Positions 25,477-32,000 of a stretch of 32,000 nt of DNA are shown one piece after another. The first letter of the stretch is position 1. Each line of letters opens with the position of its first letter. The DNA is from Candidatus Harpocratesius repetitus (GTDB lineage Archaea > Asgardarchaeota > Lokiarchaeia > Sigyniarchaeales > Promethearchaeaceae). Location of the stretch: the NCBI GenBank assembly GCA_021498095.1, contig JAIZWK010000001.1, positions 1,560,001 to 1,592,000 of the forward strand, given 5' to 3'. A model generated the notes under the pieces. It made no database searches. It was given only the letters and a program-made list of their open reading frames with translations, and was not told where the DNA came from. The translations under genes and the position numbers were made by a program.

Positions 25477-26262
25477 ATGTTTAAGGTTAAAATTAAAGAT
25501 TCAAAAATGATTAAAGGAATTTTCGATGCAATATCTTCCATTATTAGTGAAACAGTACTTAAAGTTGACCCAAATGTAGGGATCTCGATGACAGCAATGG
25601 ATATATCCCATATCTGTTTGGTCTCCTTAGTTTTACATAAAGATGATTTAGATGAATTTCAAGCTGATGAATTATACGAATTGGGAATTAATTTAGAAGA
25701 TATGGTTAAAATTCTCAAACGTAGTGGTTCATCTGATGAGATTACCTTCTCTCATGATGCTTCTGAGAAAAAATTAATCATCCAAATGAAACCACCTGAG
25801 GCGAAAAAGGCGCGTACTTTTACGATGAGTTTAATTGACTATGATGGAGAAGAAATTGATGTAAATGCTTTGAACAATTTGGAATTTGATAATATTTGTA
25901 CATTTAATCTTTCATATTTAGATGAAGCCATCAAGGATGCAGAAATATTTGCAGAAGTTCTTCAAATCCAAGCTTTACCAAATTTAGTATTTTCGACTAA
26001 TGGTAATATTGGGGATATGGAATATGTTCTAGAAAAGGAGGAATTAATCTCTGCAGATTTTAAGTCAGAGAGCACAGGTGTGTTTTCAATTGCATTTTTG
26101 AAAAATATTTTGAAGATGGGTGCAATTGCACAGAATATTACTGCAGAAATGCGTTCAGATGCCCCATTAAAGATGAATTTTGATATACTGAATTCAAGTC
26201 ATGTCTTGTATTTCTTAGCACCTCGGGTGGAAGACGATGACGATTCCATGTATGAAGATTAA
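25477..26262 (+). CDS. pcn: DNA polymerase sliding clamp PCNA
   Basis: AMDISHICLVSL, GINLEDMVKILKR, LDEAIKDAEIF, APLKMNF, YFLAPRVE; GAGGA RBS upstream. Confidence 0.96.
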   Translation: MFKVKIKDSKMIKGIFDAISSIISETVLKVDPNVGISMTAMDISHICLVSLVLHKDDLDEFQADELYELGINLEDMVKILKRSGSSDEITFSHDASEKKLIIQMKPPEAKKARTFTMSLIDYDGEEIDVNALNNLEFDNICTFNLSYLDEAIKDAEIFAEVLQIQALPNLVFSTNGNIGDMEYVLEKEELISADFKSESTGVFSIAFLKNILKMGAIAQNITAEMRSDAPLKMNFDILNSSHVLYFLAPRVEDDDDSMYED

Positions 26263-26355: not shown

Positions 26356-26444
26356 GAAGAAATTACTCATTTCCCTTCTAACTATCTCTTTTTTTTGTAT
26401 CACATTGCATACCATTCTAATTCATTGAAAAGACCAAAAAGAAA

Positions 26445-27068
26445 ATGATAACTAATATTTTAAAATCTAATCGTGAAATTACTAATGTTAACGGTTATGT
26501 TATCCGAAACTTCACTCGAAATGAAATAGCTGATTATAAAGAGTTTAAGATATCTCTAAATAATAATGGTATTGCAGTAATACAAATAAAAAGAGATTTG
26601 GTTTTTATCTTTCTTAATAATGAACTTCAATTATCAGATCTACAAAGTGAGATCGAGCATCTTTTATATCGTGGTGGTGTTCAAGTAAAACATCTTGAAA
26701 ATTTCGCATATTCCTTCGAAGAAAGAGATACATATCATGTCTTACCTTCAATATTATATAGTCTGATGATCTACAAATTGAAACGGGATTTTGGGGCAAC
26801 TTATGATAGAAAAGTGATTGAATATCTTGTTGATGGTCAATCTGTCCATCGATTTCAATTTCAATTTTTATTCGATAATGTCTTTAATGCCTATTTAATT
26901 CTCGATCCTTATCTATCTTATGATCAAGAAATAATTACTGCTAGGGAAAGATTAACCCGAATTGAATCAATTAAAGAAACAATCCAAGATATGGTATTAA
27001 CTTTGGGATCTCTTTCATTCAAATTTTCTGAAGAAATAAGTTTTAATCAATCAAATCAATTAAGGTGA
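26445..27068 (+). CDS. Putative Argonaute N-lobe partner (N-L1-L2/APAZ-like, no PAZ)
   Basis: MITNILK N-terminal strand, HRFQFQFLF...YLILDPYLSY (L1-like), ARERLTRIESI (L2-like helix); stop overlaps the next gene (GTGA). Confidence 0.62.
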   Translation: MITNILKSNREITNVNGYVIRNFTRNEIADYKEFKISLNNNGIAVIQIKRDLVFIFLNNELQLSDLQSEIEHLLYRGGVQVKHLENFAYSFEERDTYHVLPSILYSLMIYKLKRDFGATYDRKVIEYLVDGQSVHRFQFQFLFDNVFNAYLILDPYLSYDQEIITARERLTRIESIKETIQDMVLTLGSLSFKFSEEISFNQSNQLR

Positions 27069-28480
27069 AAAAATTGCAAATCGAAATTGAATATTTAAAA
27101 ACTCCACAAATACAAGTGTTTCCTGAACCAAACTTACTATTCAAAGTTGGTCAGAGAAGTACAATTAACAATGCTTTAATTGGTATTCAAAATCACGGTC
27201 CTTATGATTATAATTTAAATTTGAGAACATTTGATTCTATTAAGTTTATTGTAATTCACAATAACGATAAAGATTTACAAATAAAAACTCTCCATTTATT
27301 AAACAAACTAATATCACGTCAAGGTTATTATAAAGGCTTTAAAACTAATTTTAGATTGACAGAAGTAAAAATCCCAGAATCAACCGATGAATTCCTTATA
27401 TATAATTCACAAAATGATAACATCCTTTTTGATTTAAACCAAAAATATCCTATTACTGCAAAAAAAAGAGGTCAAATATACTTTGTAATTATTGTTGGAA
27501 ATGATCATCGTGCAATTGAAAACACAAATGAATATTATTACTTAAAAAAGATTTGTATTGAAAATGGTTATCCTTGCCAATATATTTCTAATTATAAAGG
27601 TCCAAATTACTCAGGTATACTTCAAAAAATGTCTGATACAAGAGGGTTACCTTACGCACTCTGGAATCTTGGTGTTGCAATTTATTCTAAATCGGGGGGT
27701 ATTCCTTGGGTTTTAAACAATCCTACACATATAAATATTAATTTAGGAATTAGATTTGCCCGAAATTATTCAGGAAATTATACGACTGGTTTTGCAACTT
27801 TATTTGATAAAAATGGTAGATTTATTCAGATATTTTCAAATTCTTATATAGATCGTGATTATAATCTCGGAAACGATGATTTTAAGAAAACATCCACAGG
27901 ATTAGTTGTACCTGAAATTATTGCAAAGAGAATGATTGAAGATACGATATCAAATTATAGATTATTTCATCGAGAATTACCAAATTCAATTTCAATCTAT
28001 AAACTTGGATATTTTGGCAAAGATGAACAAAAAGCGTTTATTTCTGCTTTAGAAGGGGATTTTCAAGACTATTATCTAATTGAAATAGTTGATAATACAT
28101 TGATTAGATTATTTGATGAATCCCGCTTTAATAAAATTATTGATAGAGGTTCTTTCATTCCTTTATCAAATAATTGGGGATTACTTTGTACAACTGGAAA
28201 TCACTCTAAAGATAAATTTAGAGGTTCCGAACAAGTAATTCATCAATTAGGAACTCCAAAACCCCTTTATATTAAAAAAATTTTTACAAAAAGTAATAAT
28301 GTTTCATTGGATTCTCATGCAAAAGATATTCTATCGTTAACTTCTTTACATTATCAAACAGTTACACACAACGAAATAAGATTACCTGCTCCATTGATAT
28401 TTGCTTTAAAAATAGCGAAAATGAAGAAATATAACATAACTCCACACGATTCATTGAAGAATACTCCTTGGTTTTTATAA
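27065..28480 (+). CDS. ago: Prokaryotic Argonaute, MID-PIWI only, predicted catalytically inactive
   Basis: YYYLKK...PCQYI...NLGVAIYSKSGGIPWVL (MID pocket Y-K-Q-K), GTPKPL, LTSLHYQT...RLPAPLIFALKIAK, C-terminal PWFL. Tetrad Asp positions read R (GIRF), L (IYKLG) and L (FALK). Start GTG 27065 or TTG 27074 (AGGTG + 6 nt). Confidence 0.93.
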   Translation: MKKLQIEIEYLKTPQIQVFPEPNLLFKVGQRSTINNALIGIQNHGPYDYNLNLRTFDSIKFIVIHNNDKDLQIKTLHLLNKLISRQGYYKGFKTNFRLTEVKIPESTDEFLIYNSQNDNILFDLNQKYPITAKKRGQIYFVIIVGNDHRAIENTNEYYYLKKICIENGYPCQYISNYKGPNYSGILQKMSDTRGLPYALWNLGVAIYSKSGGIPWVLNNPTHININLGIRFARNYSGNYTTGFATLFDKNGRFIQIFSNSYIDRDYNLGNDDFKKTSTGLVVPEIIAKRMIEDTISNYRLFHRELPNSISIYKLGYFGKDEQKAFISALEGDFQDYYLIEIVDNTLIRLFDESRFNKIIDRGSFIPLSNNWGLLCTTGNHSKDKFRGSEQVIHQLGTPKPLYIKKIFTKSNNVSLDSHAKDILSLTSLHYQTVTHNEIRLPAPLIFALKIAKMKKYNITPHDSLKNTPWFL

Positions 28481-29685
28481 TGACGGATACAATTTTTGAA
28501 TTAAGGGAATTTGAGCTCATCAAATATACTGAAAATTTATCGGATGAATTACCTGATCCTCTCCTCTTTTATCTACTTAAAACAATAGATTCTTCAAAAT
28601 ATGATGAAATTCTTAGGAATAATAATATTACACACTTTAGTCAATATCTAGATAATTGGAATTCAAATTTTGATTTAGATGGGATTAATGTTGTATTTAA
28701 TTGTATTAAAGTTTTGATTGAATTCGAAGAAATTGAAAGAGATGATGTTTTTAATTTATTGAATGAAATTTCCAAAATAGGTGAAATATACGATGATCTC
28801 CGTCTATTAACATTTTTAATTCTTCTAACAAAACATTCTATGAATCTTTTTAACAATGAGTCATATTTTCAACCGATATTTGATAATGTAAATTCATTTA
28901 AACACTTTCATCAATTAACTAATGATACTAAATCTTCCCATACATTGTTGCTATATCAAAATTTATCTAAGTATCTCATTGGTCTTGATTCAGAAATTGC
29001 AGTTGAAGAATTTTATATATTTTATCAAAGAAAGTATATTGATTATGAATTTCTAGAAATGATATCTTATTTATTAAATAAGAAATTACTTCCAAAATCA
29101 TTTTGTAATATTATAACCGATATATTAAGATATCATTCAAAAATATATATTGAATCGTTAATTTCTCAAACTTCAAGCATCGATGTTGATATTCCATATT
29201 TGCTTTCAGTAATCTATAATTCTTTTCAAGGTTTTGAATATAGATTTATTTTTCATAATAATCCAGGTACCGTTCTTTTAGAAAAAAATATCGGATTATT
29301 CACAAGATACTCATTAAATAATTTGGATCAAAGAATCACTGAATCCTTAAAAGAATTGGAATTATGTTTTAACCAAAATTGCTATTATTCATGTATGTTT
29401 CTAATAAGAAGAATCATTGAAGCAGCATTACATATCAAAGCATTAAGAGAAGGTAAACATGACCATTACAAAGATTCAAATGGTGAAGTTAAGGATTTAA
29501 AATATATTCCAGATATCGCAAAGGATTTGGGATTCATTTCTCGATATCATGCAAAAGATTTAAACACACTTGTTCAAAAAACAAACAATTATATTCATAA
29601 TTACCGGCAACCAAAACCAAATGAAAATGATCTCCGTGGCTATATTAATAATCTCTGTGAAATCGTAGAATCCTTATTCCATTAA
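28480..29685 (+). CDS. Helical N-terminal region + C-terminal DUF4145/HEPN-like domain; putative Argonaute-associated effector
   Basis: TAATG overlap with the ago stop; ELELCFNQNCYYSCMFLIRRIIEAAL...IAKDLGFI...LVQKTNNYIH follows the DUF4145 pattern. Confidence 0.72.
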   Translation: MTDTIFELREFELIKYTENLSDELPDPLLFYLLKTIDSSKYDEILRNNNITHFSQYLDNWNSNFDLDGINVVFNCIKVLIEFEEIERDDVFNLLNEISKIGEIYDDLRLLTFLILLTKHSMNLFNNESYFQPIFDNVNSFKHFHQLTNDTKSSHTLLLYQNLSKYLIGLDSEIAVEEFYIFYQRKYIDYEFLEMISYLLNKKLLPKSFCNIITDILRYHSKIYIESLISQTSSIDVDIPYLLSVIYNSFQGFEYRFIFHNNPGTVLLEKNIGLFTRYSLNNLDQRITESLKELELCFNQNCYYSCMFLIRRIIEAALHIKALREGKHDHYKDSNGEVKDLKYIPDIAKDLGFISRYHAKDLNTLVQKTNNYIHNYRQPKPNENDLRGYINNLCEIVESLFH

Positions 29686-29734
29686 TAAGCATATGCTTTA
29701 ATGATAAAAATTTGTACACATTTAGATGATTAAT

Positions 29735-30148
29735 ATGAATTCTGAAATTGAAGGTAAAGAAACTAATCCGTATGATCTATGGTGTTCTAATAGAATTATT
29801 CGTCGGTTAATTTCAATAGAGGAATGTGGAAAAATAGCAAAAAGAAGAAAGATTGTTAAAAATGTATATGATTTTCAATATTTTATTCAATATCTTATAG
29901 ATCATGGTTATGTGAAAATTTTTACCACACATAATAAGTATTCCACAGATATTCGATTCAATAGAGGCTTTTATCTCTACGAAAATGCTCCTGAAGAGAT
30001 TCCTTATTTTCATCCTCTTCAATTAATGCAGATAATTGATTTATTTTATTCTAACTTTATAATAGATCAACCTCGATTTGAAGATGTTACTTCTCAAAAA
30101 TATCTTTTCAACCAAGAGCGAAACAGAATTATAAAAGACAGAAAATGA
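29735..30148 (+). CDS. Hypothetical protein, possibly 3'-truncated by the downstream IS
   Basis: Co-oriented, 49 nt after the HEPN-like gene; contains YFHPLQ; ends just before a hairpin and the transposase region. In-frame ATG 29726 is an alternative start. Confidence 0.5.
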   Translation: MNSEIEGKETNPYDLWCSNRIIRRLISIEECGKIAKRRKIVKNVYDFQYFIQYLIDHGYVKIFTTHNKYSTDIRFNRGFYLYENAPEEIPYFHPLQLMQIIDLFYSNFIIDQPRFEDVTSQKYLFNQERNRIIKDRK

Positions 30149-30418
30149 CTTCCATTTAAACACTTGAAATGGACGACAAAAAACCACTTTTTTCATTCTG
30201 ATCTCGGAGAATTTGTTCTGCCTTCGGCTTTTGAAAGGAATTATTTTTGTAACTTGAGTAACTGAACTGAAGGAAAGATTTCTATAATTAAACGAATCCG
30301 GCGTGGTAATTTATCAAGAAAAATGCTAAGAAACGAATCAAAAAGTACAAAAGGGATTTAAGATTATAGATTGTTGCCAAACGCTCTACAATATTCCCTA
30401 AAAGAGGTCTTAAATCCC

Positions 30419-32000
30419 ATGATTAATAATACGGAGCTCTTAAAAGAATTTACGGATTTCATCAATCTTTTTGATCAACCATCAAAACAGGCAAAAATCC
30501 CCCATTCTTCTTCAGAAGTCCTAAATAGAATTGGTTTAACCCAAATAACTGCCATTCTTACAAATTCAGACACTGCATTTGCTCATCAGCTCTTAAAATC
30601 AATTTCAACTTTTTTTTTATCCATTCTTAAATCCATTGCCGATACTGAAGATCCTAAGCGCACATTAGAGCAAATCTTAAAGAAATTCAATCCAGATCAA
30701 CCAGCAAACTTACTTTCTACAAGTAGATCTTGTGTTCAAGCTCACATTCCACAAATGACAAAAAGTCAACTTGACGACCATTTGGAGCGTGAATATAAGA
30801 AAGAATTGAAGATATTAGATGATTATCATGCAAAATCTAAGTCTGTAGCTCTTGCGATTGATATGACGCACGAAAAAGTCTCCACGAAGTATAAAAATAA
30901 TCAACATTCATACGTTAGAATCGGACAACGGAAAGTATGGGAGACAAGCTTTAATTACTCAGCCATATATGATATTACTCATCAAAAGTTCTTGGGATTT
31001 AAGCATTTCAATGAACACAAAGTTGCAAACACAAATAAAAACCTTCAGCCATGGATTCTTCATTTACAAAATAAAATATCCGCTGTAAAAGAGGCAAAGT
31101 GTCAAGTTGAATTGATTGAAGCCGATAGGGGTTATTATAACTCTGAATTTTTTGCACTTTCTTATTTAGGAAAGATGCGGGGGTTTGACGTACCGTCTGA
31201 GTTTATCCGCTGTAATGTACCAACTAAGTTTACTGCAGGAAAAGAAGAATCTATATGGAATTTTCTGATTGATGAACAATCTAATCAAGTTTCTTTACAA
31301 TCTATGCAGTTAAACCATTATTGTCCGCCGAAACTTCGAGATTTATGCCGTAAATATAATGTTCCTTATGAAGATGGATATTATAAGATTCCTGTAGCCC
31401 AGGTTGTTTTAATAGATGAATATAAAAAAGGAAAATCCAGATCATTTGAATCTATAAAAAATGAAGCTTTTTCAATCCAAAATAGATTGCTTTCTATTCG
31501 GGAGCAGTTAAAACTCGCTGAAGATAAGTATTTCAAATTCCAACAAGCGACTAAAAAAAATCCACGCCGACTCAAATACAGGAAAGCCAAACGACGGAAA
31601 AAATTCAGCAATACTGAGGAAGAACGACTTTATCGCCTCTGTTATTCACTCTATGATCACAAAATTCGTTTGAAAGAGAAAAAGAATAAATTAATTCATG
31701 CTGTCACCTTCTTTACCATCTCGATTGCACCAGGAGAAGATCCTACGAAGTTGAACGGTAAATTTATCAAGTTTGCAAAGGACTATCATGAACGATGGGG
31801 GATTGAAAATGGTTTTCGAGATACGAAATACCAGTTTTTACATAAGAGTCGTTCCCAAAAATCTACACGACGACAATTTTATTGGATCGCAGGATTAGAA
31901 CTGTATAATCAATGGCAGCGACATAAACTGCTGGATCTTTTAGTACAAGAACGGGATCGCGTTCACAATATTGTTCCGTGGAATTCTCGACGTCGACATA
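30419..32000 (+). CDS. IS4-superfamily (ISH3/IS1634-like) DDE transposase, 3'-partial; absent from ORF track
   Basis: Frame 2 is open from 30362 to the window end: ALAIDMTHE (D, 30860), IEADRGYY (D, 31124), DYHERWGIENGFRDTK (E, 31805). The same frame continues upstream past a TAA at 30359-30361. Confidence 0.9.
   Translation, partial: MINNTELLKEFTDFINLFDQPSKQAKIPHSSSEVLNRIGLTQITAILTNSDTAFAHQLLKSISTFFLSILKSIADTEDPKRTLEQILKKFNPDQPANLLSTSRSCVQAHIPQMTKSQLDDHLEREYKKELKILDDYHAKSKSVALAIDMTHEKVSTKYKNNQHSYVRIGQRKVWETSFNYSAIYDITHQKFLGFKHFNEHKVANTNKNLQPWILHLQNKISAVKEAKCQVELIEADRGYYNSEFFALSYLGKMRGFDVPSEFIRCNVPTKFTAGKEESIWNFLIDEQSNQVSLQSMQLNHYCPPKLRDLCRKYNVPYEDGYYKIPVAQVVLIDEYKKGKSRSFESIKNEAFSIQNRLLSIREQLKLAEDKYFKFQQATKKNPRRLKYRKAKRRKKFSNTEEERLYRLCYSLYDHKIRLKEKKNKLIHAVTFFTISIAPGEDPTKLNGKFIKFAKDYHERWGIENGFRDTKYQFLHKSRSQKSTRRQFYWIAGLELYNQWQRHKLLDLLVQERDRVHNIVPWNSRRRH

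Follow-up and report, generated by a model that had tools for sequence, protein, structure and literature searches.

The stretch of DNA analysed here (the window: 32,000 nucleotides of contig JAIZWK010000001.1 of Candidatus Harpocratesius repetitus, positions 1,560,001 to 1,592,000; all positions below are counted from its first letter) carries a gene for a protein of 207 amino acids (aa), directly followed by the gene of a short prokaryotic Argonaute (pAgo) and by a third conserved gene. As a whole, the locus is quite probably best explained by a split, catalytically dead Argonaute, in which the 207-aa protein is the detached N-lobe (N, L1 and L2), the MID-PIWI protein is its partner in a heterodimer and the third protein serves as the output. 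The features concerned are the following.

26445..27068, + strand: 207-aa protein, predicted stand-alone Argonaute N-lobe subunit (N-L1-L2/APAZ fold, no PAZ, no effector domain)
27064..27068, + strand: GGTGA, a Shine-Dalgarno-like motif recognised in the sequence, overlapping the TGA stop of the 207-aa gene, 5 nucleotides (nt) ahead of the probable TTG start of the pAgo gene
27074..28480, + strand: short pAgo (MID-PIWI), 468 aa from TTG 27074 (471 aa if from GTG 27065), identified by Pfam Piwi, PADLOC pAgo and PDB matches
28480..29685, + strand: 401-aa soluble all-helical protein, candidate trans-acting effector or adaptor, the start of which overlaps the pAgo stop (TAATG)

The 207-aa open reading frame (ORF) is a real, selected protein-coding gene, since the ratio of nonsynonymous to synonymous substitution rates (dN/dS) was about 0.22 in comparison with the 79% identical orthologue in the related locus L001, and the chance of a 207-codon open frame is approx. 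3e-8 per frame start at the local base composition (GC about 30%, with a probability of 8% for a stop at each codon). The frame opens at the first start codon following a stop. The dN/dS values of the N-lobe gene, the pAgo gene and the third gene were 0.22, 0.16 and 0.20, respectively. The GC content of the three conserved genes was 26-30% vs 30-35% in the flanks, a slight drop which is uninformative on horizontal acquisition. In an earlier note, made from the sequence alone, an MxxNxL-type N-terminal strand, an L1-like segment and an L2-like segment had been proposed for this protein, and the quoted letters could all be located in the ORF: ITNIL at aa 2-6, HRFQ...LSY at aa 135-159 and TARER...IKE at aa 165-178, the latter two segments being separated by 5 residues.

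The structure of the 207-aa protein was modelled by AlphaFold2 from an alignment of 15 sequences, and the model reached a predicted local distance difference test score (pLDDT) of 84.6 and a predicted template modelling score (pTM) of 0.83. The first half of the modelled chain consists of strands 5-8 and 14-20, helix 31-40, hairpin 43-56, helix 63-75 and strand 85-90; these are followed by a long helix (95-116), a four-stranded sheet (119-155), a helix (166-181) and a short hairpin (185-192). The landmarks of the chain are given below.

aa 2-8: N-terminal strand
aa 133-155: L1-like hairpin (strands 133-143 and 149-155)
aa 166-181: L2-like helix, with the invariant R169

When the model was compared with the PDB by Foldseek, the best match was SiAga1 (8znj_B, E 1.8e-7, template modelling (TM) score 0.70; also 9lgw_B), followed by the APAZ domains of SPARDA, SPARSA and SPARTA and by the N-lobes of long pAgos. 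Of the 207 residues 195 could be aligned to SiAga1, with a structure-based identity of 12-14%. On TtAgo the model spanned residues 9-315 with about 177 residues aligned, and approx. 130 TtAgo residues in this range, which takes in PAZ, had no counterpart. The alpha/beta core of the N domain, then the L1 sheet and the L2 elements, could be superposed on Argonaute N-lobes in the model. The last L1 strand (149-155) is connected to the L2-like helix (166-181) by about 10 residues, with no PAZ between them, and this is what the earlier note had expected when it described an L1-like segment running almost straight into an L2-like helix. The entire chain is taken up by the N-L1-L2 fold: it opens directly with the N-domain strand, and no TIR, SIR2 or nuclease domain is present. 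The central proposal of that note, a stand-alone Argonaute N-lobe with the PAZ deleted and no fused enzyme, was supported by the AlphaFold2 model, by the Foldseek match to SiAga1 and by the domain searches.

Related loci were gathered with an alignment of the pAgo proteins (A2), and the N-lobe family was represented by an alignment and profile of 15 sequences (A3). The proteins encoded upstream of the related pAgos proved to be homologous to the 207-aa protein (20-25% identity, 1e-47 to 1e-96 against the family hidden Markov model). The members are 202-253 aa long and are never fused to another domain. The family is rare, being present in 3 of 400 Asgard species genomes, in one copy each and always adjoining a pAgo gene. 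The A3 profile also gave four marginal matches elsewhere among the Asgard genomes (E 2e-4 to 1e-3), which were rejected as spurious: three belonged to proteins of other kinds (beta-helix/NosD, VTC-domain and Fe-S) and one to a frame interrupted by stops. In a phmmer search across 1.84 billion representatives the sole matches of the 207-aa query were a fragment of itself and one member of the family. Known families gave no match either. Pfam yielded nothing on the family beyond DUF7444 at E 0.047 in two of the 15 members, the PADLOC models, including those of Aga/APAZ, gave no match to the 207-aa protein at E <= 1, and neither phmmer nor the A3 profile found a match at E <= 10 among all PDB chains, 8znj_B and 9lgw_B included. 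In hhalign comparisons the family was matched with a probability of 0.1% to an alignment of 32 SIR2-APAZ proteins from more distant short-pAgo loci; over this comparison and a separate one with 6 mid-sized upstream proteins the probabilities were 0.1-0.3%. In most family members a conserved tail, ...IxEREC with Cys as the last residue, closes the protein just ahead of the pAgo start (e.g. L003:4295-4993). The subclade of the window, L001 and L110 is without this tail and is about 25 aa shorter overall.

The interaction of the 207-aa protein with the pAgo was predicted by two-chain modelling. The interface score ipSAE was 0.81 in three runs vs 0.00 for the best of 3 controls; of 80 solved complexes 58 attain the mark used for this score, as do 2 of 110 mismatched pairs. 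The runs agreed in at least 85% of the contacts, and the pLDDT of the N-lobe was at least 84. The modelled interface comprises aa 1-5, 138-154, 160-173 and 198-202 of the N-lobe and aa 2-8, 345-365 and 393-398 of the pAgo. In the model, the N-lobe strand aa 1-5 pairs with the PIWI segment aa 345-352, the L1 hairpin aa 138-154 clasps the N-terminal strand of the pAgo (aa 2-8), and the L2-like helix aa 160-173, which includes the invariant R169, packs against aa 348-358 and 393-398 of PIWI. The conserved residues R169 of the N-lobe and R348, H393, G396, T397 and P398 of the pAgo are all located inside this interface. The C-terminus of the N-lobe (aa 198-202) touches the N-terminus of the pAgo (aa 2-8), as is expected of two halves of one architecture; these termini are likewise close to each other in fAfAgo and in short pAgos (PMC10954474). 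The type of the modelled interface parallels that of SiAgo-Aga1, where residues 4-6 and 161-169 of Aga1 face PIWI residues 322-347 (PMC11788926). The fold, the gene linkage, the purifying selection and the predicted interface are all supported in silico, and most likely the 207-aa protein and the MID-PIWI protein form a 1:1 heterodimer, as the models suggest.

The identity of the partner is clear from its matches to Pfam Piwi (7.6e-9), to the PADLOC pAgo model (2e-66) and to the Argonautes of SPARSA, SPARDA, SPARHA and SiAgo in the PDB. The pocket for the 5'-phosphate (Y157-K161-Q172-K209) is retained. The PIWI motifs read LGIRFAR and YKLGYFG at what are presumably the positions of the catalytic Asp motifs of active PIWI domains. 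HrAgo2, to which the locus corresponds in our interpretation (see below), was predicted to be inactive (PMC11217426). The relatives of the window pAgo, at 37-77% identity and with lengths of 468-474 aa, form a small clade, in which all source-named matches are Asgard metagenome-assembled genomes (MAGs) of Promethearchaeota, Thorarchaeota and Helarchaeota. Among the solved Argonautes the A2 profile matched SPARSA (8e-20), CbAgo (3e-16), SPARHA (6e-15), SiAgo (1.9e-13) and SPARTA/SPARDA (about 1e-11), all of them at roughly similar distances. The weakest solved match was AfAgo (E about 2e-3), and the window pAgo was not placed with the long-B clade. In the published tree the HrAgo2 subclade is sister to the short pAgos (PMC11217426).

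The TGA stop of the 207-aa gene occupies 27066-27068. The pAgo gene probably starts at TTG 27074, 5 nt past this stop, judging from the sequence: the orthologues begin with MQI..., and GGTGA followed by an A-run precedes both this TTG and the orthologous ATG in L001. In the database the window pAgo (P0003) is 468 aa long. The alternative start at GTG 27065, in a GTGA overlap, is probably wrong, since both the MQI... start of the orthologues and the position of GGTGA and the A-run point to TTG 27074. The overlap of GGTGA with the upstream stop probably means that the translation of the two genes is coupled.

All loci of the clade, which come from Promethearchaeota, Thor- and Helarchaeota MAGs, showed the order N-lobe gene, pAgo gene, third gene. 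The N-lobe gene was adjacent to and co-oriented with the MID-PIWI gene in 13 loci, and the third gene followed the pAgo gene in 11. An all-against-all comparison of the ORFs in 16 loci indicated that exactly these three genes are common across the clade. Further genes were found on both sides of them in the window:

25477-26262: PCNA, 182 nt upstream of the 207-aa gene
30371-31999: IS4-like transposase, downstream of the three genes

PCNA, a phosphodiesterase gene and an OB-fold gene are common only to the window and its close relative L001, and so is the IS4-like transposase; in L001 the three-gene cluster is followed by TniQ. The flanks in the other Asgard loci are unrelated and contain an MmeI-type restriction-modification gene and HNH, TPR and ankyrin genes. 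The HrAgo2 operon has been listed with PCNA, TOPRIM, InsG and TniQ (PMC11217426). Since the flanks are unrelated in loci other than L001, this published operon appears to reflect local synteny rather than a functional unit, and PCNA and the transposon genes, not being conserved beyond L001, were dropped as candidate parts of the system. For a 140-aa ORF located after the three genes (29726-30148) the only match was a weak one to HTH_52 (E 0.07), and the other loci lack a counterpart.

The third protein was predicted to be all-helical (AlphaFold2 model, pLDDT 74.9), with an N-terminal helical repeat (about aa 1-250) and a C-terminal DUF4145/HEPN-like bundle (about aa 280-400). Transmembrane segments are absent (the maximal hydropathy over 19 residues is 1.20), so the protein does not resemble the transmembrane effector SiAga2 in this respect. 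In the ESM Atlas the C-terminal domain matched a DUF4145 cluster (TM score 0.59, root-mean-square deviation 2.3 Å over 132 aa), and further cluster matches of this domain were Abi_C, HEPN_RiboL-PSP, AF_1680/DUF4145 and HepT-like. Folds of these kinds (DUF4145, Abi_C and HEPN) are characteristic of abortive-infection modules. When the third protein was compared with the PDB by Foldseek, nothing was matched at E <= 0.001, and only a weak local match to 1wwp, a small T. thermophilus protein of the HEPN type, was obtained. Among the members of the third protein's family H373 is fully conserved, and N374 and R310 are almost so. By its modelled fold the protein appears HEPN-like, its family membership and any RNase activity being putative, and it is a candidate for the output module.

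Several observations weigh against the proposed reading. No sequence-level homology of the 207-aa protein to any known N-lobe/APAZ family was detected by Pfam, PADLOC, the phmmer and profile searches of the PDB or hhalign, therefore the assignment depends on a structure predicted from only 15 sequences. Its L2 consists of one helix and a short hairpin, about 45 aa, and with such a short L2 the channel geometry may differ from that of the known complexes. Similar complexes have already been solved, and the score of the heterodimer may partly reflect the memory of the modelling program for Argonaute-APAZ structures; therefore the ipSAE value above the mark shows likeness and is not proof of binding. 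As for the third protein, the canonical HEPN motif R-x4-6-H is absent in all 12 members, no Arg being present 4-6 residues before H373, and Pfam DUF4145 was matched below threshold in 4 of 12 (best 20.1 bits vs a cut-off of 23.1). Since the motif is lacking and the DUF4145 matches are below the Pfam cut-off, the effector role is the weakest step of the proposal.

Other explanations of the locus were also considered. The 207-aa gene and the pAgo gene are in different frames, 5 nt apart and beside a homopolymer A-run, and single-chain forms do exist among the AfAgo homologues and short pAgos (PMC10954474), so a sequencing or assembly error near 27065-27075, where an A6 run is located, might have shifted the frame and divided one gene, for a single-chain, PAZ-less pAgo of about 680 aa, into two ORFs. 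The earlier note had named this case as one that would overturn its proposal, and it was not upheld. In each of the 13 related loci in which the junction is covered, a stop and a restart separate the N-lobe gene from the pAgo gene; the assemblies are independent, the stop codons differ, the spacers vary (15 nt in L001, 4 nt in L003, 26 nt in L008 and 1 nt in both L005 and L006) and the MQI... start is conserved. The uniform length of the clade pAgos (468-480 aa) also argues against a single-chain gene. Only one DNA run, probably that from which the assembly was made, was listed as containing the stretch, and no RNA run was. In the Logan re-assembly of the probable source run the region 26400-27500 was identical, with no indel, which gives weak independent support as the reads are the same, and the A3 profile search for longer or fused forms of the N-lobe family found none, which is likewise weak evidence. 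As the genes are separate in 13 of 13 loci with differing stops and spacers, the frameshift is practically excluded. A modelling artefact, or the convergence of an unrelated small alpha/beta protein on the N-lobe shape, was considered hardly more credible: the lack of sequence similarity to any Argonaute or APAZ family and the shallow alignment speak for it, but the structure prediction and superposition suggested in the earlier note gave the N-L1-L2 fold of Argonautes on both SiAga1 and TtAgo and not an unrelated one.

The 207-aa protein could also be a decaying or regulatory remnant, e.g. an APAZ stripped of its effector or an inhibitor of the pAgo, with no part in duplex binding. It is short for its family, with 207 aa vs 225-253 aa, is without the C-terminal ...EREC tail of most members and carries no enzyme domain. 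However, the gene is under purifying selection (dN/dS 0.22), the whole family is effector-free across distant Asgard lineages with the interface residues kept, and the N-L1-L2 core of the model is complete, with 195 of 207 residues placed on SiAga1; thus a remnant seems very improbable. Somewhat more weight, though still little, can be given to the possibility that the three genes serve transposition or DNA replication rather than defence, in which case the N-lobe would aid guide-directed targeting as in TniQ-associated systems. The nearness of PCNA (182 nt upstream), the IS4-like transposase from 30371, the TniQ gene after the cluster in L001 and the inclusion of PCNA, TOPRIM, InsG and TniQ in the HrAgo2 operon (PMC11217426) all agree with such a role. 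It is improbable, however, because PCNA and the other flanking genes are limited to the window and L001, with unrelated flanks elsewhere, and because the third gene resembles DUF4145, Abi_C and HEPN folds.

Both SiAgo and AfAgo are established examples of a design in which a stand-alone N-L1-L2 subunit is combined with a MID-PIWI protein and a separate third gene. In the SiAgo-Aga1-Aga2 system of Sulfolobus islandicus, SiAga1 (PDB 8znj_B, 9lgw_B; PMC11788926) is an effector-free, PAZ-less N-lobe of the same type as the 207-aa protein, but there is no detectable sequence similarity between the two. The gene orders differ as well, since the effector gene Aga2 is located upstream of Aga1 in the SiAgo system, while the third gene comes last in the window, and Aga2 is a transmembrane effector, whereas the third component of the window is a soluble helical-repeat and DUF4145/HEPN-like protein. 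SiAgo belongs to another clade and is no nearer to the A2 profile (E 1.9e-13) than the long-A CbAgo. AfAgo-N of Archaeoglobus fulgidus (PDB 8old, 8olj, 8pvv; PMC10954474) is a stand-alone N-lobe too, again unrelated in sequence to the 207-aa protein. Its partner AfAgo is a truncated long-B pAgo and, among the solved Argonautes, the most distant one from the window pAgo (E about 2e-3). The gene downstream of AfAgo resembles the membrane protein SiAga2, in contrast to the soluble third protein here, and AfAgo has fused single-chain relatives, whereas the A3 search, as weak evidence, found none for the window family. The APAZ domains of SPARTA (TIR-APAZ), SPARSA (SIR2-APAZ), SPARDA (DREN-APAZ) and SPARHA (HNH-APAZ) are fused to effectors, unlike the 207-aa protein, which is also shorter than typical APAZ domains (about 250 aa) and has no PADLOC Aga/APAZ match. 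In the long pAgos (TtAgo, CbAgo, KmAgo, RsAgo) N, L1 and L2 are in one chain with PAZ, while here they form a separate polypeptide with PAZ absent and L2 reduced. The present locus differs from SiAgo and AfAgo in its N-lobe sequence family, which is unrelated to theirs and to APAZ, in its Asgard-specific pAgo clade, in its more compact N-lobe and in its soluble HEPN/DUF4145-like third component.

Other split pAgos of archaea were also noted, at L041:137-1042 (a Nezhaarchaeota MAG) and L081:21-857 (a metagenome contig). Their upstream proteins of 302 and 279 aa match the N-terminal half of the PADLOC PprPIWI model (about 32-286 of 666), the C-terminal half of which (290-665) is matched by the window pAgo, and at these two loci the split is visible by sequence. 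The pAgos next-nearest to the Asgard clade (L053, L085, L051, L052) have upstream ORFs of 177-322 aa with no PADLOC match, and these could be further effector-free N-lobe partners.

We infer that the locus is that of HrAgo2 of 'Ca. Harpocratesius repetitus FW102' (PMC11217426), because the genome contains a second, long Argonaute, PCNA precedes the short pAgo and an IS transposase follows it. The second Argonaute is located at G000:C1:3526454-3527359 (L115), in an 822-aa open frame with a Piwi match of 1.9e-63. Its presence is consistent with the HrAgo1/HrAgo2 pair described for the organism (PMC11217426). In the same publication HrAgo2 is presented as being without N-L1-PAZ and effector, its operon is contrasted with the effector-assisted short pAgos, and the upstream N-lobe gene goes unmentioned. 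No further literature naming HrAgo2 was found, and none linking an Argonaute with DUF4145 in this way.

In the model suggested, the 207-aa protein would supply N, L1 and a short L2 in trans to the MID-PIWI protein. The heterodimer would rebuild a two-lobed, PAZ-less, slicer-dead Argonaute with a closed channel for the guide-target duplex, as predicted from the models and as in SiAga1-SiAgo and AfAgo-N-AfAgo. By analogy it may bind a 5'-phosphorylated guide and a complementary target, and the binding of the target may alter the shape of the heterodimer and engage the third protein, whose helical repeat and DUF4145/HEPN-like domain would constitute the output module of a defence-type system. The type of the guide and the target, the activation of the effector and the biological role are all drawn from the analogy with SiAgo-Aga1-Aga2 and fAfAgo.

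The earlier note took the 207-aa protein for an intermediate between the long and short pAgo architectures, which is a conjecture. A wider evolutionary proposal is speculative and rather unlikely to hold in full. It states that this Asgard clade preserves an ancestral form of short-pAgo immunity, in which an enzyme-free N-L1-L2 protein and a catalytically inactive MID-PIWI sensor work with a soluble HEPN-like effector, possibly an RNase, that acts in trans. Bacteria would then have fused effectors to APAZ at a later stage, as an innovation of their own, the three genes would be a previously unrecognised three-component defence system of Asgard archaea, and HrAgo2 would not be 'effector-less'.

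The consequences of the split Argonaute itself are more immediate. The missing N-lobe of the HrAgo2-type pAgo would be encoded by the gene directly upstream, only three genes are conserved in the clade, and the third of these appears to be of the abortive-infection type, HEPN/DUF4145-like; each of these points revises the published picture of HrAgo2. AfAgo was reportedly studied for years without its other half, and the expression of HrAgo2-type proteins alone would repeat this history. The compact N-L1-L2 module of about 205 aa is offered for structural work. Since the 207-aa protein would be a third, sequence-unrelated example of a stand-alone N-lobe, it strengthens the view that Argonautes have been split into two chains repeatedly.
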